From: a virus | Direction: 5' to 3' (one strand) | Virus record (IMG/VR): IMGVR_UViG_3300006931_000005 | Span: 1 to 64,000 of that record | DNA length: 64,000 nt | In this document: positions 15,377 to 38,252 of the stretch, in pieces | Layout of the letters: every line of letters begins with the position of its first letter | Position numbering within the stretch: position 1 is the stretch's first letter | Program-made: the position numbers and the translations under genes | Notes under the pieces: generated by a model | The model's database searches: none | What the model was told of the DNA's origin: nothing | What the model saw: the letters and a program-made list of their open reading frames with translations, nothing else

Positions 15377-16464
15377 TTCTCTACGCATCATCTCCTGATG
15401 GGGTCGCCCAGCAGCAGAATTACTACGACCAGCTCCGAATGAACGCGGAGCAGAACAATGCCGCACGCTTCGACGCGGCACAGGCCCGTGCGCTTCAGGC
15501 CACCCTTCAGCAACGTGAATCCGACCGGCGCTCGCAGGATGCCGCCGATACCTCCGCAGAGCAAGCTGACCAGTTCAACCAGCGTCTTGCCTTCGAGGGT
15601 CAGCAAGGTGATCTGAACCGCGCTTCACACGAGAAGGACGTGAACACGCAGTACAGCTCGACGCACGCCGACCGGCAGGATGCGATCAATCAGCGCGATT
15701 TCGAGCAGGCTCAAAAGCTGGCCATGGCTGGTCAGATTCCGCAGACCGAGGAGAAGGTTGCCTCGCTGTATCCGAATTTCAGCAAAGACCAGATCAAAGT
15801 TTTGGCGGCGGCAAGCTCGCAGCACGCCTTCGACCGTTTCGGCACCGCTCTCGATATGTCGATCCGCGCCGGTAATCCGTTGCCGCTTGAAGCCGTCTCC
15901 AAGATCGTCAACCCGGACTCTCCGATGTACAAGGACGCGATTGATTTTCGCACCGAAAAACTCGCGCCGTTCGTCCAGCAGTTCAAGACCGGTGAGGACA
16001 AGGCCCGCAAGGGAAATTTAGCAGCAAAGATTCAGGCTGATACCGAGGCTGCACCGCTTCCGACTTCATTGAGCGCCAATACCCCTATGTGGGCTGGCGG
16101 TTATGCAAATCCTATCAACTGGGGTATTCGGCTCGGCGAGCATTTGTTCCCGGATATTACCCCAGATAATACAATCCAGCCTCGTGGCGACTGGCAGACG
16201 CGGGCTCCGTCGATTGTTTCATCGCTCCGCGCTGGGAATGATCCGGCTGTAACCACAGACGTTACAACTGGAAAATTTGTGAACACGATGCTCAATCCGA
16301 ACGGTGGCCCGCAAGCACCGGAGCCGATTGTTCCGCCGATCCAGCCCGGCCCGGTCGCTCCTGTCCCCGGCGTTCCGACGGTCACAACTCAAGCCCAATT
16401 TGATGCGCTGCCCAGCGGTGCCATTTACATTGGAAAAAACGGTAAGCAATTTCGCAAGCCATGA
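15373..16464 (+). CDS. Internal virion / DNA ejection protein
   Basis: Q-rich N-terminus; C-terminal QFDALPSGAIYIGKNGKQFRKP motif typical of ejection proteins. Confidence 0.7.
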   Translation: MILYASSPDGVAQQQNYYDQLRMNAEQNNAARFDAAQARALQATLQQRESDRRSQDAADTSAEQADQFNQRLAFEGQQGDLNRASHEKDVNTQYSSTHADRQDAINQRDFEQAQKLAMAGQIPQTEEKVASLYPNFSKDQIKVLAAASSQHAFDRFGTALDMSIRAGNPLPLEAVSKIVNPDSPMYKDAIDFRTEKLAPFVQQFKTGEDKARKGNLAAKIQADTEAAPLPTSLSANTPMWAGGYANPINWGIRLGEHLFPDITPDNTIQPRGDWQTRAPSIVSSLRAGNDPAVTTDVTTGKFVNTMLNPNGGPQAPEPIVPPIQPGPVAPVPGVPTVTTQAQFDALPSGAIYIGKNGKQFRKP

Positions 16465-19400
16465 AGCAAGATGATTTTGGCGGCATCGCATTGGACGATC
16501 CACAATCATCTGACGAATTTGGTGGTGTACCGTTGGCACCTTCCACATCGACAGATGAATTCGGTGGGGCACCTTTAACTTCACCGGCTCCGATTCAAGT
16601 CCCGGCGCAGAGCCAGCCGATGCCGGAGCCGATTCCATTCAAAAACCCGGACATCATCGCGCCCGCGCCGGAAGCGCCGTCGATCCCCGGCGTCTTGGCC
16701 CGCAGCGCGGCCAGAAATGTTCTGCCGACCGCAGGATTTATTGCGGCTGCGCCAGTCGGTCGCTTGGCCGGTGCTGCTGCTGGTGCCCGCACTGGCGCTC
16801 TGCTTGGAGCTCTGGTGCCCGGTCTTGGTGAAACTGGCGTCAGTGAGGGCGTTGGCGCAGTGATTGGTGGCCTTATCGGTATGTTCGCCACTGGAACAGC
16901 GGCGGCAACTGCAACGAAAGCACTTCAGACTGGCGCTGCCGATTACGTCGCACCAGATTCTTTCCTTGGAACGAAGTCGGAGCAGGCGGATATGGCGGCA
17001 CATCCCATCGCCAGTGAGCTGGGAAGCCTTGCCGTCATCGGAAAACCGAATCCGTTCAACATCATCCGGGCTGCACGCACCATCGGGTCGGATACCGGAC
17101 GCGCAGCACTCGCCGATCTGTTGAAAACTGGCGCGACCAAGGGCGGCTATCAGGAATGGGCCAAGACTTACTCGCCAGAGGTGCAAAAATCTGCTGTCAA
17201 CGTGCTCAACGTCGCGCAGGCGGGCGGCATCAACGCGGCTTTCAATGTGTACGACCAGATCAAATCTGGAAATTACAGCGCGGGCGACCTTTTACGGTCG
17301 GCGGCGGAGGGCGCTTTGTTCAATGAGCCTTGGATTCACGCAAAAAATCCTGCGACCGACTCGTTTGATTCCGCACTGACACCCGAACAGGCCACGGAAG
17401 CGAATAAAAACCTCCGGGCGTTGAGCCCGTACCCGGAAACCGGGACGCCGACGAACATCTCGAAGGGGATCGTGGCCGTTCCGGTCGGTCAGCGGACGCA
17501 TATCATCCAAGTGAACGGTCAGGACGCCGCCGTTTTGAAGCACGTCGATGGCGCGGACTTTCAGAAGGCGCAGGACGATGCTGGCGCGTCCGGGTGGGAC
17601 GGATATTTTCTTAAAAAAGACCCGGAGAGCGGCAATCCGACGATCTACATCAACATGGATCACCTGAACCGTCAGGATTCCCTGTTCACGCACGAGTCAA
17701 CGCATTTGCTGGAGGCCATGGGGCTCATCAACCAGCAGCAGATGGACGCCGTGAACACGACCTACGGCCAGATCAAGGTCAAGGACGCCGACGGAAATGA
17801 ATTGCCCATCGCTCAAGAGGTGGCGAACCGTTACGCGAAATTTAATCAGGACAACAGCCGACCGGATCAGACGCCGGAAGATTTTCAGCGCGAACTTTTC
17901 GCCAACATCCTGCAACACTGGCATGAAACCGGGACTGCGCCGAAAGACACCTTCATCAAGCGGGCGATTGATTTCATTTCCGGCATTGCCGGGCTCGATA
18001 AATCGGGCGAACAGCACGCGAGAGACTATATCGCTGGCCGTTTTGAGAAGGCACCTGAAGAAGCCGGAGCTCCGGCGACCGCCGATCTTGTTCCGGCTGG
18101 CGCAGCGAGCGCGGCTCCTTTGCCAAATTTGGCATTTGACAAAAATCCTGTTCCGTCGCAGGCTACGGGTGATGTCAGACAAGCCGAAGAACGAGCAGGA
18201 GCCGGAGTACCACCGCCCGCCGAAGGGGTGGAAGCCGGGAGGCCCGCCGTTGGTGCTCCGCCCGCCCGCCCCGGTGCCGAGCCCAACGCCGCCGTCCAGC
18301 AAGCCGCCAATGCCTACAACGAAGCCGTAGGTCTCGGCCCAACGCAGCCGCATTACGTCCCGGTGGACGAGGCCCGTGCCCGCCAGATCGCCGCCGAGTA
18401 CGAGAAGCTTCCGAAAACCGACCAGTCTCCGCAGACCCTTGCGTCCTACGAACAGCTTGGCAAGGAAATCCAGCAGCAGTGGGATTATGCCCGGAACAAA
18501 ATGGGCATCACGTTCGAGGCTTGGACGAAAGAGGGCCAGCCCTACGCGAATTCCCGCGAGATGGTGAAGGATGTCCGGGACAATCATCACCTTTATTTTT
18601 TCACAGGCGGCGATGAGCATCCGCTGCTCAACGTCAAGGACGCTGACGGGCTCACGCTCAATGACAAGCTCCGGGCTGTCCATGACCTGTTCGGTCATGC
18701 GGCGGAAGATTTTCAATTCGGCGCACGCGGCGAGGAAAATGCGTGGATCAAGCACAGCCAGATGTTCACTCCCCTCGCGCAGAAGGCGCTGACGACCGAG
18801 ACCCGTGGCCAAAACTCGTGGGTGAATTACGGGCCGCACAATTACGAGGCGACCGGTGCCCGGAGAAACATCAAGCCGCAGGATCGTCCGTTTGCGGATC
18901 AAAAAGTTGCCCTGCTCCCTGACTGGGTGCATGATTGGAAAGGCCCGTTAAATGAAAACCAAAAAGCACAGTTCAGCGTCCCGAAACAAGCGCCCGATTT
19001 CACCGACCTCCAGTGGTGGAAGCGTGACAAATCCGAACCGGATGCAGGCGCTCGTGAATCTGGCGCTCCAAGAACTATCGCAGGTAATCCCCGCGAGCTC
19101 GCCCCCGGCGAACGCGACGGCAAAGTAACACTCACGCACTGGTCGAACTTCGACCTTCACGGAAAGGCGATTGATCCGAATTTTTACGGCTCCGGTTATG
19201 CCGGTGAGGAAAAAGGCCGTCGGGTTTTCAAAAAGTCTTGGCTGAACCGCAGCTATTTTGGAATGAAGGGCTACGTCAAAGAAGGTGGCCTTGGCCGATT
19301 CAAGCACAGCGTCACGGTGGACGTGAACAAGCTCTACGACCTGAAGAATGATCCCGACCGGCTGGGTGAAAAAGTCGGCGCGATCTCCGACCGGCTGTAT

Positions 19401-22400
19401 CCGAAGGGTGGCACGCAAGCCGATCTCACCGTTTACGAAAATCTCATCAAGAAGGCCGGGTACATCGGATACTACAACACCGATTATGCGGTGGCCGCGC
19501 TGTTCGACAAGGTGCGCGTCCCGGCCCGCGTTTCAATCATTCACTCGGTTGAAAATTTCAAGCCCGCCACACACAAGGACATGACGCCGGAGGAGCTGCT
19601 GACATCGGCGCAACAGGTGCGGATCAAGGCTCCTTCCGGGACTACCGCATTGCGTGTGATCGACTCGAACGGCAACACCGTGATTCATAACCTGTCGAAA
19701 TTCTCGACCAGAAATCCGCTGTTCAACAAGGATGTGGTGCGTGTCAGCCCGGTATCGGTGAAAACCAGTGGCGTGTACAAGAACCATCCGATCCCAGTGA
19801 AAGGGCCAGTGCGCGTCGAGCCGACGGCGATGTTTTCGGTGCCGAAGAAAAAAGAATTTTTAGATGCGGGCGAGGAATCTCGCAATCCAAGACCTAATGC
19901 TACGACATTGCCGACTCCACCGACAGGGGGGCTTAAAGAAATCGGAGATCGTACCGCATCTAAGTTTAATTACGATAAAAACGTGCTGGATGAAAATGGC
20001 GCGATGAAGCGATTTTATCACGGAACAGGAAAATCGGATCAATTAGTAAAATCTGGAGGATTTAGCTATGAAAAAGCCAGCGACGAATCACTGTATGGAA
20101 AAGGATTATATTTCACTGAAAATCCTGAAATTGCTGGAGGAACAGTCGTAGGCGCTGATTTGGTAAAACGCGGATATGCTGGCAGCTCTGGTGCTGTCAT
20201 TCCGGTCAACATCAATGCCAAAAATCTTTTTGATGATTCGGTCGGTATTCCGAAGCAGCAAGCCGAAAAGCTGGTGCTAAAATATATTGATAAAAACGGT
20301 GAAAACGATGTCCAGCTTAACGGCAAGTATGGATCATTCGCCGCCGCAAAACCGGTAATTAAAGCGCGTGAATCAATAGATAATTCGTTTCGAGAATTGA
20401 TTGATGATTTGGCGCAAGAAAAATCAATTCGGGATTTAGTTAAAAAATATGTTCCAGCCGGAAGTTTATCTGGAAGCCAGACCATAAAAGATCGTTTGAG
20501 CTGGGCTTTTGGTCGGCGCAGTATCCATAACTCAATCGCGTCTGAACAGGATAAGTCGGCTGGTGGAATACGGGCTGAATCAACAGGTGATATTAAGCAA
20601 AAAATTTACCAACTCGATGATCTTGAAAAGCAAAGCAATGCTCTTGATCGTCAAATTTCAGAGGCGATGGGGCAGGTTGGTAAGTATTCTGACTTTGTAA
20701 AAAAAGTAATTGAAAATGTTGATGGCCCTGTGAAATACGGCGATCTTACAGATATTTTTTTACAGGACAAAAACGAGGTCAATAATTTTTTAAGAAATTC
20801 TGGATACGATGGGATTACTCATATTGGAGGAACTATCACAGGTAGCGATCCACATCGCGTTGTAATTGTTTTCGATCCGAAGCAGATTCGCTTTGCGATT
20901 GGCGCAGATCAGCCTTTCTTTTCAGTTCCAAAAAATTCATCTCAAGAGCTGAAAAAATTTCCGCGCACAGCCATCGACATTCTGATGGACGAATCGGTAA
21001 TCAATCCGGTGCGTCCGAAGCAGGTTGCCGAATTCGATCTCATGGGCGATGACGAGGCCGCAGGATCGACCAGCTTCTCCCGCGTGTTCGCGGTTGCCGA
21101 CCACCTTTCCCGCCGATCCGCGCAGCTTGGCGGTGGAGCCCTGCACGAGCTCAACGACACAAACGCCGAGACGCTGGCAAACACTGTGGCGAACGAGGCG
21201 GAGTACGCGATCAACCGCGATCCGAAGGCGATTGGCTGGTACGACCGCGAAATGAAGGCGGCGATGGGCCAGATTTTTAACCGGCACCCGGAGCTGAAGA
21301 AAGATCGCGGCCTGCAATCCGTTTTCAAATCCATTCTGGCGATCACCAACAACGGCCAGAATGTTTTTGCGAATTTCGCGCAGGCGGACAAGCTTTACAC
21401 GGATTGGCGCACGGCGGGCAAGGTGCCGGACGAGGAGAACTGGGGCGGCAAGAGTAAGGGCGCGATCAACGACGGCCTGAAGATGCTCAACCTGCTCATC
21501 GAGAAGCTGGGCACCGCGAATCTGGAAAAGTTTTTGGCCAAGGAATTCAAGGTTGGCGATCTCAAGAGGGCTGGATTCGACATCAGTTCTGAAAACACCG
21601 AGCACATGGCGCACGGCTCGCTGATCTACGGCCCGAAGGTCGGCGGCGGATTCTATCAAAACCTGATCGGCAACCTGAATCCGATCACGATGGATATGTG
21701 GCTCATGCGGACGATCAACCGTATGCGCGGCACGCTCACCGAGCCCAGCCTCACGGCGCTCCCGGATCAGATCGACCGGTTCATCAAGTCGATGAAGAAG
21801 CAGCCGGACAGCGAGGCGATTATCGCGGATGCCAAGCGCGTGAAGCAGCAGATTTTGGACGGCACGCTCGACGTGAACAAGGAGAAGGATGCTCCGGGTG
21901 TGATGCTGACCGCCGCCAAGAATTTGTACGACGATTACCGCAACAGCGGGTTCGTAAAGCGGACGGAGCTCAACCGCAGCTCGAAGCTGATCGCCGAGGA
22001 ATTTTTCGGCATCAACGAAGCGCCGACTTCGGCGTCCGAGCGTGATTTCATCCGCAATGTTTTCGTCCGGGCGCAGGAGAAGTTGAAAGCGAAAAAAATC
22101 GACATCACGAACGCCGACCTGCAAGCCGTTCTGTGGTATCTTGAGAAGGATATTTATGGAAAACTTGGAGCAACCGACCGCCGATCCGCGCCCGCCAGCT
22201 ACTCGGACGCCGCCGCAGCCCTCAACCGAAAACAGCTCGGACTTTTCGATGAAGAACAAGGACGATCAGGCGATCTTCGAGGAGCTGAATCCGCTGGCCC
22301 GGAGATCAATCGCTTCGGTGAAGCTGGCAAGCAGCTTACTGGCGCACAGGCGCTCAAGCGGGTCTCCGTCCAAGAAGCGGAGCCTGTACCGCAGTTCTCG

Positions 22401-25400
22401 GTGACGAAGAAGCTGAAGTTTTACGAAGGCAAACGCTTCGGTGACGTGAAGGACGAGGTGGTGCCGGAAGTTCCGCCGTTTCATCCGCTCGGCGTCGAAC
22501 AATTCAAGCAGGCCCGCGACAGCATCGTGAACCTCGCGCACACGACCGGCGCGATCCAAGCGCGTGGTATGCGGATCAACTTCGCCAACCCTGATCCGGT
22601 CACGGCCAAGCGCCTTGGCGTTGACCAGAACAGCATGGTGGCCCGCGCCATCCACGCGATCTCAAATTCCGACCGGCGCACGGCGAACGAAAACAAGGTG
22701 CTGCTCGCCGACAACATTTTGAACACGGTGAAGCAGGCTGATTTCGTCACCAAGATTCAACGTGATTCAACGGACGGTGATAATGTCGGCCAGTACGGTA
22801 CGGCATTCATCAAGGCTTACGATATTGACGGCAAGAAGGTCTGGCACCTTGTCCAAGTGGACGGCAATGGTGATTTTATCACGCAATTTTCTTGGCCGGA
22901 TACGGAAGCTGAAAATGGACGGGTGATGCGGTCGCAGATTGTGCAGGTTGGTCAGCGGGTTGGTGGTTTGCTAGAGTCGAAGGTTAATCCGCAGGCCGAA
23001 GCCCCGACGCCTTCTAATTTCGCTCCGCCAACCGCTGACCAAGGTGAGATTGCCACATCTGGCAAAGAGGCGCAACCTCAATTTTCAGTAGCCAAGGAGG
23101 AGAAGCGGGCGCAGGTCGGCGGCATCCCTGAAGTCGGTCAGGTGCGCGATACCGAATCCATTTCCGACAACCAAGCGCACATCCGCGAGCGCCTGTTCGA
23201 CGGCACGCAGCCTGTTTCTGACGAGAACACATCCGCCGCGTGGCAGGTATTCGACGAGATGACGGGCAACAACCGCTCCCAGATCGCCGGGCAGTTGAAA
23301 GACGCCTTTGGCGGATCGCGGCTGCTCCTTGGCCTATATAAAGGCGAGGTCTGGAAGTACGCCCGCAAGCTGGCGGTCAACGGTGACGATTCGCTGCTGC
23401 GGGCGATGTACGATCACAGCGAACAGTTTGAGACCCTTGCCGGTGGTGGCGCATCAACCGCTGGCTCCGCGCTCCGGGCCGAGGCCGAGAATGCAAACGA
23501 TCCGGTCAACCGGGCACTCCAGTCCGCCTACGAGACCGAGCGCGAAAATGCGGCCCAGTCCGCCTCCGGCATCGACCGCGAGACCTTCACCGGACTGCTC
23601 AAGCGCCTGCGTAGCCTGAAGCTGACGCCGGACGAGGTTGAGAAGGTGGTCAAGGAGGGCAAGCTGCCGGACGGCAAAACCCTCGAAGAAGCTTTGGACG
23701 AGCTTACGCCGGAATCGAAGGAGGCCATGGCGTTGCTCGACAAGTATCAGCGTTCGCAGACGGAATGGCTGAAGCCGGACGTGAAGAAGTCGATCATCCG
23801 CGTGATCGTGGACGCCGCCATCGGCGAGAACAAGCTGGCGCGTTACGACGAGAAGGATTTTCAGGATCGGTTGTCCACCCGGCTGCAAGAAGCCACGGTG
23901 CCGAAGGAAGTCGCCGACCAGCTCGCGTTCGAGGTGTGGAAAGACAAGGCTGCACGCGAGGCCACCAAGACCGACAAGGCTGTCAAGGCGGATGCCGCGT
24001 TCGAGCAGAACCGGGCGCAGGCCATTCTCGACAAATTGCAATCTGACCAGACCGAAGTGTTCAGTCAGGCCCGGCGCTCGAAGGTTGCTGACATCGTTAA
24101 GGCGTTTTACAAAAACCCTGCGGCGTCCGAAGAAGTGCGAGCCCAGCAGATCGCGCAGCTCGAAAAAGATTTGGTTAATGAGACCGTGAAACCCGCAACG
24201 GCCAAGGAGCTGGCGCGGGAAGCTGGCCAGCGCAAGCTGGTGCTCGAAGCAAACGACCGGCTGGCGCAGGAGAAGGTCACGGCCAACGAAGCGCAGCAGA
24301 CCGCTGAACGCGAGCTCGCAAAATTCGAGGAGAAAAACTCCGGTGTCGAATGGCTGAAGGAAAAAGGCAAACGCGATCAGGTGCTTCAGGCGATTGCCGA
24401 TGCGCTGAAGTCGAAGTCGCCGATCCTCGATGATCCGACACCGCTGGTGAACGAGACCAAGGCGAAGCTCACTGCGCTCGGCGTAGATGAGGCCACGGCG
24501 GGCAAGCTGGCTTTCGAGATCGAGACCGTCCGGCGCACGCAGTTCGCCAACAGCCGCGTGAAGGCGATGGAAAATGCCGCCAAATCTAAAAGCCTGCGGT
24601 CGCTCATCGAATCTATCCTCGAAACCCCGTACCGCGCCCAGTCCGACCCGAAATGGCTGCATGAAACTGCTGTCCGCTGGTTCGAGTCGAACGGTCTCGG
24701 CAAGGATCAGGCTGAAGCCGCCGCCCGGCTGTTCGACAAGGAGTTTAAAGAGGCGTTGGCGCAGGCCAGCACCAAGGTTGCCGAGGCTGAACTGAAGAAA
24801 AAAGTATCGCCCCGCACTTACGATGATCTGGAGCGGTTGATCCGGGCCGGAATTTTCGACCCGGACAAAAACTGGATCGACCAGCTCGCGGCGAAGAACG
24901 GCTGGAAGAAGCCATCGCGTGACCAGATGCTCAAATTGCAGGAATTGGAGCACAAGCTTTCCGATCCTGAATTGTCACCCGAAGAAGTGCGCGACATCCA
25001 AGAGCAGCAGATGCACGTCCTGCGTCACGTCGGCAAAAAAAGGGGCCAGACCCTCCGGGCGCTCGGCGAATCGTTCACTGCCTCGCTGCTGTCCGGCATC
25101 CGCACGCTTACCGTGCAGACCTCGCCGACGGTCATGGCCCTCCGCGATCTGCCGATCATGGCGCTGTCCGATCCGAAGAACGCGATGAATTTTGCGAAGG
25201 CGATGTACAACTCCTTCAAGGCAAATGCGGTCGCGGCGTTCAAATTCGCGTGGATGAAGGACGCCTACGGTTTTCACTTGAGCGAGCTGGAGCACGGCTT
25301 CAACGAGATGAAGCGCATCTCCGAGGAGACGGATCAGGTGGTCAACTCAAAGACCTCGACGCCGGTTGCCAAGGCGCTCGCGTACACCAAGAAGCTCTAC

Positions 25401-27239
25401 GCGCTCCAGCGTTTTGTTTTCCGCAACCTGAATTCCATCGACCAAGCTTCGATGGCTGTCACCCGCGAATGGAAGCTGGCGTATTATTCCGCTTCTGCGT
25501 TCAAAGAAGCCGGGCTGACGAACACGGACATTTCGCAGTTGATCGACCACATCGAGATGCTGCGTAAAAACGAATTCGAGAAAGCCATCGACGCCGGGCT
25601 GGATGCGAACACGGCCAAGGTGCGGGCCAACAGCCGGGTCGCGGATTCCGTCTGGGATTTCGTGAATAACAAGACCGGTCGCAGCGATCTTGCGGATCAG
25701 GTTATCAAGGCTACCGAGAACGACGTGTACTCCACCGTCGGTCGTGTGCCGCACGGCTTGAATTCAACGGATGAAGGCTTCCTGACCCGGTTCTCCGGCT
25801 TTAATCATTTCCTGCAATTCGTGTCCAAGGTTCGCGGCGAAGGCGGGCTCCAGAACATCGGCACCACGGCGCTGATCGGCATGATTAACATTCCATTCCG
25901 CACGACCCGTTATTTTTCTGACTTCTCGCCCTACGGCCTGCTGCGCTACGGTATCTACAAGTACCGGCTGAATCGCGGCAAGGAAAACTTCTGGAAACAG
26001 ACGTATGGCAACGCGCTTCAGGCTCGCGCCCGGCTGTACTCCGCGCTCGCGGGCACCGTTGCCATGGCCGCAGCGACCGCATGGGCGCTCAAGAGCAACA
26101 CGGCGGACGACAAGGCTGGTGACGAGGACTTCGGCCTGTACATCACCGGCAAGGGGCCGAACAACAAGGTGCTGGCCGATGCGTGGGTCAAGCGTGGATT
26201 CAAGCAGTATTCGGCAAACTTTGTTTTCGGTGGCCACATCGTTGCGATTCCGCTGACCCGTGCGGGCGAAGCCCTGATGATGCCCTTCATCCTGCCCGCC
26301 GCGCTCGATGACTATGCGTGGAAATCGAAAGAGGCGGAAGCGGGCGGTCATCCGATCAAGACTCCGATTTCATCCGCCACTGCATCACTGATCGGCGAGG
26401 CAATGTACATGACCGGCCAGTCAGGTATCCTCCAGACTTTTGGCCAGCTCCAGCAGGCGACTGAAAACGGCGGCAGCTTGGGCAAGGCGGCGGTCAAGGT
26501 CGGTGTGAGCGCGGCATCATCGACGGTGTTACCCTTCCGCCAGCTCCTCGCGTCCGTGAGCGAAATGCTTTTCGGAAGCATGGATAATTCAAGCATCAGC
26601 TCGCTGATCGCAAACCAGTTTCCAATCGTGGGCCTGCCGTTTCAGAATCCGGCTGTCAACCGCTTTGGTGATCCGATGTACGACCGTAGCTGGTACGGTC
26701 TGATCGCCCGCACTGGCGTTCCCATCGCTTTTCAGATTTCGCGTTCGCCGGAAAATGAGCGGTTGTACACGACGCTCGTGGAAAAAGGAATTTCGCCACC
26801 GCCGCTGAATCGCTCCGATCTTGAATCGAAGTACGGCGACATGACCGATCAGCAGTTCAAGCAGTTTGCTACCGTTTCAGGTCAGGCGTTGAAGCAGGCA
26901 ATCACAAAGAATCTTCCCGACCTTCAGGGCATGAGCTCGGTGGACGCGAAGAACCTGATGTTCAAGCTGGCGATGCAGGCGAACGCTCAAGCGGCCATGG
27001 CCATTGGCGTGGCTCCGCAGCCCGCAGCCGGTCAGACTGCCGCCGCAGGGTCGGCTGGTGCCGCGCCGTCGAAACAGAAAAAGGCGAAGCTTTCCAAGGC
27101 GTCTAAATCAGTCCGGTCGCTTTACAAGCTGCCGAAGATGAGCCTGTCTCCGGTCGGTAAGAAATCTCACAAATCGACCACGGCCCGGCGCGGTGGATCG
27201 CTCTACGGCGTGCAGCCACGCCACCTCTACGGCACCTGA
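16461..27239 (+). CDS. Giant polyvalent ejection protein (metallopeptidase, two ADP-ribosyltransferase-like domains, glycosylase-fold domain, nuclease-like domain, helical C-terminus)
   Basis: 3592 aa; D(D/E)FGG repeats; HESTH; HDLFGH..RGEENAW; LTHWS...RSYFG; FYHGT...GLYFT...GYDGI...VFDPKQIR; GWYD...GPKVG.FY.NL...TMDMW...LQAVLWY. Confidence 0.88.
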   Translation: MKQDDFGGIALDDPQSSDEFGGVPLAPSTSTDEFGGAPLTSPAPIQVPAQSQPMPEPIPFKNPDIIAPAPEAPSIPGVLARSAARNVLPTAGFIAAAPVGRLAGAAAGARTGALLGALVPGLGETGVSEGVGAVIGGLIGMFATGTAAATATKALQTGAADYVAPDSFLGTKSEQADMAAHPIASELGSLAVIGKPNPFNIIRAARTIGSDTGRAALADLLKTGATKGGYQEWAKTYSPEVQKSAVNVLNVAQAGGINAAFNVYDQIKSGNYSAGDLLRSAAEGALFNEPWIHAKNPATDSFDSALTPEQATEANKNLRALSPYPETGTPTNISKGIVAVPVGQRTHIIQVNGQDAAVLKHVDGADFQKAQDDAGASGWDGYFLKKDPESGNPTIYINMDHLNRQDSLFTHESTHLLEAMGLINQQQMDAVNTTYGQIKVKDADGNELPIAQEVANRYAKFNQDNSRPDQTPEDFQRELFANILQHWHETGTAPKDTFIKRAIDFISGIAGLDKSGEQHARDYIAGRFEKAPEEAGAPATADLVPAGAASAAPLPNLAFDKNPVPSQATGDVRQAEERAGAGVPPPAEGVEAGRPAVGAPPARPGAEPNAAVQQAANAYNEAVGLGPTQPHYVPVDEARARQIAAEYEKLPKTDQSPQTLASYEQLGKEIQQQWDYARNKMGITFEAWTKEGQPYANSREMVKDVRDNHHLYFFTGGDEHPLLNVKDADGLTLNDKLRAVHDLFGHAAEDFQFGARGEENAWIKHSQMFTPLAQKALTTETRGQNSWVNYGPHNYEATGARRNIKPQDRPFADQKVALLPDWVHDWKGPLNENQKAQFSVPKQAPDFTDLQWWKRDKSEPDAGARESGAPRTIAGNPRELAPGERDGKVTLTHWSNFDLHGKAIDPNFYGSGYAGEEKGRRVFKKSWLNRSYFGMKGYVKEGGLGRFKHSVTVDVNKLYDLKNDPDRLGEKVGAISDRLYPKGGTQADLTVYENLIKKAGYIGYYNTDYAVAALFDKVRVPARVSIIHSVENFKPATHKDMTPEELLTSAQQVRIKAPSGTTALRVIDSNGNTVIHNLSKFSTRNPLFNKDVVRVSPVSVKTSGVYKNHPIPVKGPVRVEPTAMFSVPKKKEFLDAGEESRNPRPNATTLPTPPTGGLKEIGDRTASKFNYDKNVLDENGAMKRFYHGTGKSDQLVKSGGFSYEKASDESLYGKGLYFTENPEIAGGTVVGADLVKRGYAGSSGAVIPVNINAKNLFDDSVGIPKQQAEKLVLKYIDKNGENDVQLNGKYGSFAAAKPVIKARESIDNSFRELIDDLAQEKSIRDLVKKYVPAGSLSGSQTIKDRLSWAFGRRSIHNSIASEQDKSAGGIRAESTGDIKQKIYQLDDLEKQSNALDRQISEAMGQVGKYSDFVKKVIENVDGPVKYGDLTDIFLQDKNEVNNFLRNSGYDGITHIGGTITGSDPHRVVIVFDPKQIRFAIGADQPFFSVPKNSSQELKKFPRTAIDILMDESVINPVRPKQVAEFDLMGDDEAAGSTSFSRVFAVADHLSRRSAQLGGGALHELNDTNAETLANTVANEAEYAINRDPKAIGWYDREMKAAMGQIFNRHPELKKDRGLQSVFKSILAITNNGQNVFANFAQADKLYTDWRTAGKVPDEENWGGKSKGAINDGLKMLNLLIEKLGTANLEKFLAKEFKVGDLKRAGFDISSENTEHMAHGSLIYGPKVGGGFYQNLIGNLNPITMDMWLMRTINRMRGTLTEPSLTALPDQIDRFIKSMKKQPDSEAIIADAKRVKQQILDGTLDVNKEKDAPGVMLTAAKNLYDDYRNSGFVKRTELNRSSKLIAEEFFGINEAPTSASERDFIRNVFVRAQEKLKAKKIDITNADLQAVLWYLEKDIYGKLGATDRRSAPASYSDAAAALNRKQLGLFDEEQGRSGDLRGAESAGPEINRFGEAGKQLTGAQALKRVSVQEAEPVPQFSVTKKLKFYEGKRFGDVKDEVVPEVPPFHPLGVEQFKQARDSIVNLAHTTGAIQARGMRINFANPDPVTAKRLGVDQNSMVARAIHAISNSDRRTANENKVLLADNILNTVKQADFVTKIQRDSTDGDNVGQYGTAFIKAYDIDGKKVWHLVQVDGNGDFITQFSWPDTEAENGRVMRSQIVQVGQRVGGLLESKVNPQAEAPTPSNFAPPTADQGEIATSGKEAQPQFSVAKEEKRAQVGGIPEVGQVRDTESISDNQAHIRERLFDGTQPVSDENTSAAWQVFDEMTGNNRSQIAGQLKDAFGGSRLLLGLYKGEVWKYARKLAVNGDDSLLRAMYDHSEQFETLAGGGASTAGSALRAEAENANDPVNRALQSAYETERENAAQSASGIDRETFTGLLKRLRSLKLTPDEVEKVVKEGKLPDGKTLEEALDELTPESKEAMALLDKYQRSQTEWLKPDVKKSIIRVIVDAAIGENKLARYDEKDFQDRLSTRLQEATVPKEVADQLAFEVWKDKAAREATKTDKAVKADAAFEQNRAQAILDKLQSDQTEVFSQARRSKVADIVKAFYKNPAASEEVRAQQIAQLEKDLVNETVKPATAKELAREAGQRKLVLEANDRLAQEKVTANEAQQTAERELAKFEEKNSGVEWLKEKGKRDQVLQAIADALKSKSPILDDPTPLVNETKAKLTALGVDEATAGKLAFEIETVRRTQFANSRVKAMENAAKSKSLRSLIESILETPYRAQSDPKWLHETAVRWFESNGLGKDQAEAAARLFDKEFKEALAQASTKVAEAELKKKVSPRTYDDLERLIRAGIFDPDKNWIDQLAAKNGWKKPSRDQMLKLQELEHKLSDPELSPEEVRDIQEQQMHVLRHVGKKRGQTLRALGESFTASLLSGIRTLTVQTSPTVMALRDLPIMALSDPKNAMNFAKAMYNSFKANAVAAFKFAWMKDAYGFHLSELEHGFNEMKRISEETDQVVNSKTSTPVAKALAYTKKLYALQRFVFRNLNSIDQASMAVTREWKLAYYSASAFKEAGLTNTDISQLIDHIEMLRKNEFEKAIDAGLDANTAKVRANSRVADSVWDFVNNKTGRSDLADQVIKATENDVYSTVGRVPHGLNSTDEGFLTRFSGFNHFLQFVSKVRGEGGLQNIGTTALIGMINIPFRTTRYFSDFSPYGLLRYGIYKYRLNRGKENFWKQTYGNALQARARLYSALAGTVAMAAATAWALKSNTADDKAGDEDFGLYITGKGPNNKVLADAWVKRGFKQYSANFVFGGHIVAIPLTRAGEALMMPFILPAALDDYAWKSKEAEAGGHPIKTPISSATASLIGEAMYMTGQSGILQTFGQLQQATENGGSLGKAAVKVGVSAASSTVLPFRQLLASVSEMLFGSMDNSSISSLIANQFPIVGLPFQNPAVNRFGDPMYDRSWYGLIARTGVPIAFQISRSPENERLYTTLVEKGISPPPLNRSDLESKYGDMTDQQFKQFATVSGQALKQAITKNLPDLQGMSSVDAKNLMFKLAMQANAQAAMAIGVAPQPAAGQTAAAGSAGAAPSKQKKAKLSKASKSVRSLYKLPKMSLSPVGKKSHKSTTARRGGSLYGVQPRHLYGT

Positions 27240-27281
27240 AAATTCCCTGTTGACTTCTTTGCCAGATTTGGCATTGTTACT

Positions 27282-27356
27282 TCGTGGCCCGAATAACGGA
27301 GCGTTACCGTAACGGCGAAGTCCTCTGGATGGAGCGTGCAAGAGCAGAGGCCACGA
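27282..27356 (+). ncRNA. tRNA-sized structured RNA 1
   Basis: Closing stem TCGTGGCC/GGCCACGA with internal hairpins; directly after TTGACT-N16-CATTGT. Confidence 0.45.
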
Positions 27357-27357
27357 C

Positions 27358-27431
27358 GCGGAAGTAGCTCAATGGTAGAGCCGCCGTTTTCCAAACGGCA
27401 CACGAGAGTTCGATTCTCTCTTTCCGCTCCA
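27358..27431 (+). tRNA. tRNA-Gly (anticodon TCC)
   Basis: GCGGAAG/TTTCCGC acceptor, GCTC/GAGC D-arm, GCCGT-TTTCCAA-ACGGC anticodon arm, GAGAG-TTCGATT-CTCTC T-arm, encoded TCCA. Confidence 0.96.
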
Positions 27432-27439
27432 ATTACCGA

Positions 27440-27516
27440 GTGCCGGAATCAGATTCCGTCAGCCTAGTTGCATGGGCGCATTGCATCCGCAGCGGTGGGC
27501 GAATTCCACCGCACGA
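27440..27516 (+). ncRNA. tRNA-like structured RNA 2
   Basis: Hairpins CGGAAT/ATTCCG, GCCTA/TGGGC and T-arm-like GGTGG-GCGAATT-CCACC. Confidence 0.4.
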
Positions 27517-27526
27517 TTTGCAGAGC

Positions 27527-27612
27527 GGTGGGTGCGGAGTACGGCTCGTAGCTGGATACTACGGATGCGGCCAACCAGTCCGAGTGGAAAAGCCAGCACG
27601 CACCTGCCACCA
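27527..27612 (+). ncRNA. Degenerate class II tRNA-like RNA (GGA anticodon, Ser-like)
   Basis: GGTGGGT/ACCTGCC acceptor plus ACCA; GAG-TACGG-CTC; CGTAG-CTGGATA-CTACG; non-canonical T-arm; 86 nt. Confidence 0.55.
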
Positions 27613-27619
27613 ATTTGAA

Positions 27620-28033
27620 ATGGAAAAAAAACGACTAATTTTTAACTCGCCGACGAATGACGAGCTTAAAGTGCTGAAGCACTTTTTGCCGAAGATCAAG
27701 GCGCAAGCCGAGTCCGAGGCGTCAACTGATGTCAAAGCCAAGCGCGGTGCTCTAGTTCAAAAATTCTGCGGCATCTGCGGCGAGAGCCTGATCGACAAGC
27801 AGAAGCGAAGTCCGAATCCAAAATTGTGCAAAGAGTGCGATGAATTTTTAACCGCTGGCCAGACCGCTCTTGTCACGATGGATGGGCGCTATGCGTTTGT
27901 ACAATCTGACGGCTCCGAGGAGGCAAAGGCGATAGCTGGAAAAATCATTCCGGTTGAATCCAAGCTGCTGGATGAAATGGCGCAGAAACAAGGCATCGAA
28001 ATCAAAGAGAATCCCAATGTCAAAAACAACTGA
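27620..28033 (+). CDS. Zinc-binding hypothetical protein
   Basis: CGIC...CKEC; start moved to ATG 27620. Confidence 0.75.
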   Translation: MEKKRLIFNSPTNDELKVLKHFLPKIKAQAESEASTDVKAKRGALVQKFCGICGESLIDKQKRSPNPKLCKECDEFLTAGQTALVTMDGRYAFVQSDGSEEAKAIAGKIIPVESKLLDEMAQKQGIEIKENPNVKNN

Positions 28034-38155: not shown

Positions 38156-38252
38156 GGCGAATAAACTTGTTGCAAGTATCGCCCGATTGAATTACAAATC
38201 AATAGGAAACGCCAAATATGGCAATATCAAATCCTTAACCCGCAAAACTTTT

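Follow-up and report, generated by a model that had tools for sequence, protein, structure and literature searches.

Genomic Setting of the Non-coding Island

The DNA analyzed in this study, referred to below as the window, comprises the first 64 kb (64,000 nucleotides) of a 73,724-bp IMG/VR virus record. The source genome is that of a soil phage with direct terminal repeats and a G+C content of 56%, and its gene content includes a DnaB-like helicase, tail and virion proteins and an exonuclease VIII-like gene. A gap of 380 nt at positions 27240–27619, in which no credible open reading frame (ORF) was found, lies between a giant gene and a conserved CxxC gene. The giant ORF (16461–27239) upstream of the gap encodes a polypeptide of 3,592 amino acid residues. 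Given that its homologs possess ART-PolyVal and similar domains, it is called a polyvalent protein here. A protein search with its C-terminal 890 residues identified 16 homologs (P0002–P0017), whose total lengths ranged from 2,070 to 4,069 amino acid residues. Their C-terminal portions of about 900 residues were conserved, with identities of 33–67%, and the most distant match was 26% identical. Their N-terminal domains varied and included ART-PolyVal, ParB-like and helicase/methylase sets according to precomputed annotations.

The CxxC gene (27620–28033, + strand), taken from the ORF list, is the first gene after the island and encodes a zinc-ribbon-like protein of 137 amino acid residues. It is followed by methyltransferase and glycosyltransferase genes, and its syntenic homologs were found in the metagenome loci L003–L011. 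No Shine-Dalgarno motif is visible upstream of its start codon. The only Pfam match of the CxxC protein was to the zinc ribbon of Rpr2, a subunit of RNase P. This match was sub-threshold (18.5 bits, as compared to a cut-off of 29.3 bits) and probably reflects a generic zinc-ribbon similarity.

Elsewhere in the genome, two matches to the type II hammerhead ribozyme were found on the minus strand, at positions 1428–1483 of the window and at genome positions 73114–73174 (L033:9114–9174). They scored 27.5 and 26.5 bits, below the gathering score of 37 bits, and were thus missed at the gathering threshold. Both are located between genes of a minus-strand operon that spans the genome ends.

The Promoter-Like Leader

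The island begins with a promoter-like leader (27240–27281, + strand) that is conserved in relatives. The leader contains TTGACT at 27250–27255, the palindrome GCCAGATTTGGC at 27261–27272 and a -10-like CATTGT/TGTTAC at 27272–27281. Its first 39 nt (27240–27278) are identical in L003, with the alignment continuing to about 27281, and it is still recognizable in L004, a relative with 67% amino acid identity. A first-pass annotation of this DNA had placed a single promoter before all structured units of the island. The conservation of the leader and the lack of any further promoter-like or terminator-like site inside the island agree with this proposal, but the -10 element is weak and a consensus promoter scan did not flag the leader. 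With so weak a -10 element, any position given for the transcription start is a guess. Scanning a viral collection with the leader pattern returned only chance sites in unrelated viruses.

The palindrome of the leader belongs to a type, GCCA-N4-TGGC, that occurs in 10 copies in the window, where 1.8 copies are expected. These copies include those at 18118–18136, 23051–23068, 27257–27275 and 38207–38226 as well as six further ones. Four copies have an extended form, TTGCCA..TGGCA(A/T), of which two are within the giant ORF. The same palindrome is also found directly upstream of the CxxC gene in six relatives (L004, L006, L007, L009, L010, and L011). It could represent an operator or belong to a promoter specific to the phage.

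The tRNA Gene and the First Slot

ARAGORN identified a tRNA-Gly(UCC) gene with the anticodon TCC and an encoded CCA at 27358–27431 on the + strand, which also matched the Rfam family RF00005 with a score of 64.9 bits. It was the sole tRNA called in the whole 73.7-kb genome, by ARAGORN and by a genome search with RF00005 alike. Only 27358–27431 combines the cloverleaf, the conserved D-loop and T-loop nucleotides and a score of at least 29 bits that define membership of this family. Thus, the earlier statements that this tRNA is the only canonical one of the island, and that a tRNA finder would return one confident match, were both borne out. The folding z-score of the tRNA was -3.7.

Neither L003 nor the 47-kb relative G001 has the tRNA-Gly gene. 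However, a 77-nt stretch (27358–27434) that consists of the tRNA and the following ATT is 100% identical to a sequence of the wastewater run X8, where its flanks are entirely different. Hence, the tRNA gene seems to travel between genomes as a unit. No exact match was found in GTDB genomes. The nearest tRNAs of GTDB reference genomes found with a pattern anchored on the D and T arms were about 80% identical and scattered over phyla, and an exact-pattern scan of the viral collection with the anticodon arm returned no match.

Between the leader and the tRNA lies unit 1 (27282–27356, + strand), which is 75 nt long and ends 1 nt before the tRNA. It is closed by a perfect 8-bp helix (UCGUGGCC/GGCCACGA), and its folding z-score was -1.5. 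By the authors' estimate, such a closing helix is expected about 0.2 times in 380 nt, and on its own it is therefore within chance. In L003, the place of unit 1 is taken by a 130-nt element with a 12-bp closing helix. Homology between unit 1 and this element was considered and rejected (p 0.6). The two unrelated first-slot elements thus both have long closing helices, of 8 and 12 bp, respectively. The leader, unit 1 and the 5' half of the tRNA were also found, with two differences, in a read-length contig of run X2, which comes from another study (2023). Small leaderless ORFs that begin 6 nt after the -10-like hexamer (GTG at 27284 in the window and an ATG in L003) were rejected as genes, as they are dissimilar to each other and the ORF of the window runs into the tRNA.

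Unit 3: Three Hairpins With Compensatory Changes

Unit 3 (27432–27517, + strand) begins directly after the CCA of the tRNA and folds into three hairpins (27441–27461, 27467–27487, and 27492–27512), which are joined by the conserved single-stranded stretches UUACCGAGUG and CGUCAGCCUAGUUG. Its folding z-score was -1.2. A homolog that is 75% identical was found in L003 at 2786–2872. The three hairpins comprise 21 base pairs, of which four are changed on both sides between the window and L003 and yet remain paired. The remaining changes of pairs are one from G-C to G-U and two in which the bases are unpaired in one of the copies. When both copies were considered, 95% of the cells were paired, as compared to 24–59% with slid partners, and the slid controls gave no compensatory change. 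In a simulation in which the 11 stem substitutions of unit 3 were placed at random, at least four compensatory pairs arose with P = 2.5e-4. This covariation is that between two sequences only, the window and L003. Moreover, hairpins 1 and 3 had been predicted from the window alone, whereas hairpin 2 was chosen after both copies had been seen and RNAalifold favored an invariant alternative for it.

The concentration of changes in compensatory pairs is unlike neutral decay and points to structural selection. Thus, as judged from the comparison of these two copies, unit 3 is under selection for structure. The first-pass annotation had argued that pairing retained by all units reflects selection rather than decay, and had named covariation in relatives as a check. 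For unit 3 the check supports the argument, as its hairpins are kept in the other copy; the argument holds for that unit only. The tRNA and unit 4 are inserted beside an undisturbed unit 3, which suggests that unit 3 is a self-contained module and does not depend on proximity to a start codon.

Several other identities of unit 3 were considered and rejected. A 197-aa ORF that starts from GTG at 27440 could be a real N-terminal extension, but an indel of 1 nt and the compensatory changes of unit 3 speak against coding. Candidate pairings for an HDV-like ribozyme or an H-type pseudoknot were either unconserved or needed zero-length loops, and hairpin 3 has no U tract and was rejected as an intrinsic terminator. 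A covariance model of unit 3 found no further copy in the 274 kb of DNA searched, and an exact-pattern scan of the viral collection with its core found no match.

Unit 4: A Clamped Element Ending in ACCA

Unit 4 (27527–27612, + strand) is predicted to form a Y-shaped RNA with a 10-bp closing helix and a 3' ACCA, and ends 7 nt before the ATG of the CxxC gene. Its minimum free energy is -37.3 kcal/mol (z -2.7), and the pair probability of the closing helix is 0.95–1.0. Two G-U pairs make this helix specific to the + strand, where it is more stable. The arms proposed earlier for unit 4 thus fared differently: the closing helix followed by ACCA was confirmed as a prediction, whereas the GGA "anticodon arm" was not. 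A hairpin of CGUAG-CUGGAUA-CUACG can be drawn, but the pair probability of this arm in the folding ensemble is about 0, and a cloverleaf-like alternative fold is 5–8 kcal/mol worse than the Y shape. Unit 4 is also loosely colinear with E. coli tRNA-Ser(GGA), sharing a GGUG start, a CUGGA loop, a CGGC..AAC extra arm and a CCA end.

The predicted fold has the minihelix shape known for RNase P, i.e., a terminal helix of about 7–12 bp with a single-stranded RCCA. A helix of at least 10 bp that closes 60–100 nt and is followed by NCCA occurs once per strand in the genome, with 0.9 expected in shuffled sequences. For this 380-nt island the expectation is about 0.005, a value judged post hoc, and the architecture is notable only through its position in a tRNA island.

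Relative to L003, unit 4 is contained in a 97-nt insertion (27521–27617, + strand), as shown by pairwise alignment, and this insertion is flanked by direct repeats of ATTTG at 27516–27520 and 27613–27617. From this alignment, unit 4 looks like a recent insertion. No second copy of unit 4 was found in the genome or in the viral collection, and an exact-pattern scan of the latter with the unit 4 interior found no match.

Relatives and Modular Turnover

The relatives whose DNA was compared comprise one viral contig and ten metagenome contigs obtained by the search with the C-terminus of the giant protein. The order of giant gene, short leader and CxxC gene is kept in all of them. The viral-contig search returned one relative, with 49% identity and no tRNA. 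In fact, no tRNA was found at the locus in any of the relatives compared, nor anywhere in the 47 kb of G001. L003 is the only one of the 10 metagenome loci that carries any unit. Its giant gene is 97% identical to that of the window at the amino acid level and 90% at the nucleotide level, and its island consists of the leader, the 130-nt element, the unit 3 homolog and the ATG, without the tRNA or unit 4. The modules are gained and lost independently of one another, with unit 1, tRNA, unit 3 and unit 4 in the window, the alternative first-slot element and unit 3 in L003, and none in L004–L011. The form of L003, in which 218 nt replace 334 nt, was also found in run X3. The matches in runs X2, X3, and X8 are to contigs, and no RNA run containing the stretch was found. 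Given that the nucleotide identity is 90% upstream and only about 69% downstream, in the CxxC gene, a recombination joint lies at about 27281, at the end of the leader. No homolog of units 1 and 4 was found among the sequences compared.

In L004, L006, L007, L010, and L011, the ATG is located 5–17 nt after the GCCA-N4-TGGC palindrome, and a Shine-Dalgarno motif cannot be seen. This suggests that the ancestral mRNA had little or no leader. At the same slot between the giant and CxxC genes, L009 (2100–2200) and also L008, which are relatives with 38–39% identity, have a different non-coding insert, in which a 19-nt direct repeat, TAGTTTCCGGGTCTGAAAA, stands on either side of an inverted repeat.

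Similarity of the Units to tRNAs

The first-pass annotation had described units 1, 3, and 4 as three tRNA mimics. None of them was called by ARAGORN at thresholds of 70–80% or in the mitochondrial mode, and none was matched by Rfam at E-values of up to 10 when the 651-nt surroundings were searched. A 121-nt slice around unit 4 also gave nothing in Rfam. For a more sensitive comparison, a covariance model of type II tRNAs was built from 10 real tRNAs with long variable arms (Ser and Leu of E. coli, and Leu, Ser, and Tyr of two phages). With filters off, the real tRNA-Gly scored 44.6 bits with this model. Unit 4 scored 9.4 bits, which came from its acceptor and the CGUAG-CUGGAUA-CUACG arm while the T arm was skipped, and unit 3 scored 6.7 bits, which came from hairpin 3 only, read as a bare acceptor helix. 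Across the whole window, unrelated sites scored 10.6, 9.1, and 8.6 bits. Unit 4 is thus at the noise level of this model.

Local alignment against 41 real tRNAs gave p-values of 0.07–0.15 for unit 4 and of about 0.5 for unit 1, unit 3 of the window and the first-slot element of L003. Different from the window copy, unit 3 of L003 shows similarity to the D-arm region of tRNA-Leu (GUGGCGGAUUUGGUA), with p-values of 0.017 for the best match and 0.003 for the mean of the top five against the same 41 tRNAs. An acceptor stem is found in neither copy. The likeness of the L003 copy to tRNA-Leu makes a remote tRNA origin of unit 3 possible. Taken together, tRNA likeness is absent from units 1 and 3 and marginal in unit 4, and the label of three tRNA mimics is for the most part unsupported. 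Of the closing stems and hairpins ascribed to the units, the 8-bp helix of unit 1 and the three hairpins of unit 3 were recovered, but unit 3 has no acceptor stem. A shared CACGA ending that had been pointed out is not kept in L003. Moreover, no observation suggests that the units act as decoys for anticodon nucleases, synthetases or processing enzymes.

The folding z-scores of units 1, 3, and 4 were modest beside that of the tRNA. The units are mutually unrelated and have no second copy in the genome, and the idea that they are repeats of one another was rejected, as was a derivation of the island from the 5' coding region of the CxxC gene. Blastn searches of the units against phage and plasmid collections returned tRNA matches only, plus one match at an E-value of 0.5. 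No match to ribozyme families (hammerhead, HDV-like, twister, and others) was found in 27100–27750 or in the L003 island at E-values of up to 10.

Interpretation and Alternative Explanations

The island is lineage-specific; it is preceded by a conserved promoter/operator-like leader and followed by the operon, starting with the CxxC gene, that comes after the giant gene. We tentatively favor its interpretation as a modular and rapidly changing island of structured RNAs that are transcribed together and act as modules for processing or stability, or as small stable RNAs, with a confidence that falls somewhat short of even. We infer co-transcription, the cleavage sites and any function. The island would be transcribed as one precursor. 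Host RNase P would cut it between 27357 and 27358, which would release unit 1 as a 5' fragment shielded by the clamp helix, and would probably also cut 5' of the acceptor-like helix of unit 4 with its ACCA. RNase E or exonucleases would then trim after each CCA, and a cut after the ACCA of unit 4 would shorten the leader of the downstream mRNA to a few nucleotides. In this way, units 1, 3, and 4 would act as processing or stability modules and may persist as small stable RNAs, similar to RNAC and RNAD of T4. These cleavage steps follow established behavior of RNase P and RNase E (PMC11143913; PMC12710915, PMC2190699). In addition, the sub-threshold type II hammerheads between genes elsewhere in this genome make RNA punctuation of its operons plausible.

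The units may instead be the remains of a decaying tRNA cluster, in which units 1, 3, and 4 are functionless pseudo-tRNAs and units 3 and 4 descend from type II tRNAs of about 86 nt. The tRNA-like sizes of the units (75, 86, and 86 nt) would fit this origin, as would the weak similarity of the L003 copy of unit 3 to the tRNA-Leu D-arm region (p 0.017; 0.003) and a tRNA complement that varies between close relatives. Unit 4 can moreover be drawn with an acceptor, an ACCA, a CUGGAUA loop and a long extra arm, colinear with tRNA-Ser(GGA). However, it scores at the noise level, unit 1, unit 3 of the window and the L003 first-slot element show no tRNA similarity, no relative has an intact tRNA at the corresponding slots, and the changes of unit 3 are concentrated in compensatory pairs. 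Thus, we consider decay unlikely. The structural selection on unit 3 and its conserved single-stranded UUACCGAGUG and CGUCAGCCUAGUUG would also be expected of RNAs that act in trans, either as decoys for tRNA-targeting defense nucleases, RNase P, the CCA-adding enzyme or seryl-tRNA synthetase or as sRNAs that pair with host or phage transcripts. The acceptor-like helix and ACCA of unit 4 could serve such decoys, the neighboring giant polyvalent protein and methyltransferases look like counter-defense genes, and phage tRNAs have been proposed to counter tRNA-cleaving defenses (PMC10264068). Against a role in trans, folding does not predict the anticodon-like arm of unit 4, the phage and plasmid collections yielded neither an antisense nor a sequence match to the units, and the units are missing from all but the closest relatives, which makes decoys or sRNAs distinctly improbable in our assessment. 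A more elaborate reading, to which we assign still less probability, sees in the island a slot for exchangeable clamped RNA cassettes, placed where transcription of an ancestrally leaderless operon begins. Here tRNA-Ser would be the ancestor of unit 4, which would have lost the T arm and been kept as an RNase P/RNase E signal whose cleavage restores a near-leaderless mRNA 7 nt before the AUG, and unit 3, perhaps with unit 1, would be a trans-acting anti-defense RNA.

The position of the island between a promoter-like leader and a gene without a visible Shine-Dalgarno motif, together with the end of hairpin 3 only 13 nt before the ATG in L003, would suit a cis-regulatory 5' leader of the CxxC gene and its operon, such as an attenuator, a thermosensor or a protein-binding site. 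In the window, however, the 97-nt insertion separates unit 3 from the start codon and the tRNA separates it from the promoter. Moreover, the terminator scan did not flag hairpin 3, which has no U tract, Rfam returned no match to a riboswitch or leader family, and the relatives express the CxxC gene without any leader of this kind. A cis-regulatory leader is therefore very improbable. Equally improbable is that the folds beyond the tRNA and unit 3 are merely typical of a spacer with 56% G+C and that unit 4 is a MITE-like fragment, that is, a DNA element with imperfect terminal inverted repeats and a 5-bp target duplication but no RNA role. The modest z-scores, a tRNA-model score of unit 4 equal to that of chance matches elsewhere, the occurrence of a helix with NCCA about once per strand by chance and the ATTTG repeats at both sides of the insertion are what such a spacer would give. 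On the other hand, no second copy of unit 4 is found in the genome or the viral collection, the G-U pairs of its helix fit an RNA and not DNA repeats, and both alternative first-slot elements are clamped by long helices.

Comparison With Known Systems and Implications

By analogy, the closest known case is the tRNA region of phage T4, which yields RNAC and RNAD (species 1 and 2), whose function is unknown (PMC3014915, PMC9697503). Similar to RNAC and RNAD, the units would be structured non-tRNA RNAs encoded among phage tRNA genes, and they lie in a tRNA region and on its strand (+), with gaps of 1 and 0 nt to the tRNA. Different from T4 with its eight tRNAs, the island has only one, and its units are shorter (75–86 nt) and known from sequence alone. 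A sequence relation between RNAC or RNAD and the units is not expected.

Other non-tRNA phage RNAs, such as M3 RNA of phi80 and the C4 antisense RNAs of P1 and P7, are cleaved by RNase P, which depends on a 3' RCCA (PMC11143913; PMC12710915), and RNase E is described as cutting 1–3 nt after CCA (PMC2190699). Similar to the C4 precursor, M3 RNA and pre-4.5S RNA, unit 4 combines a long terminal helix with a 3' RCCA-type motif (10 bp and ACCA). Different from them, it has neither sequence homology nor a known antisense target, and it is a candidate substrate by its predicted shape only. The units also share with the tRNA pseudogenes of plastic phage clusters their tRNA size and their location beside a real tRNA, and weak traces of long-variable-arm tRNAs, in colinear order, are seen in unit 4 and in the L003 copy of unit 3. 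Unlike such relics, however, unit 3 evolves by compensatory change, and the tRNA-model scores are at the noise level.

Processing hairpins punctuate polycistronic phage transcripts, for instance at the RNase III sites of T7, and tRNAs punctuate mitochondrial transcripts by a similar principle. By analogy, the structured modules between promoter, stable RNA and mRNA would probably be separated by endonucleolytic cleavage, although the island does not contain a long duplex of the RNase III type as the sites of T7 do.

Our results replace the more exciting reading of three tRNA decoys with a modest one, that of structured spacer modules in a plastic tRNA island. This island is a compact natural experiment: entire RNA modules distinguish two haplotypes of one phage, one of these modules is under structural selection, and relatives that lack the island display the ancestral state, in which the promoter directly adjoins the start codon. 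Ever since RNAC and RNAD of T4, phage tRNA regions have been known to contain structured RNAs other than tRNAs, whose roles are still unexplained. If the units described here are processing signals or counter-defense RNAs, they would help to explain why such RNAs accompany phage tRNAs.
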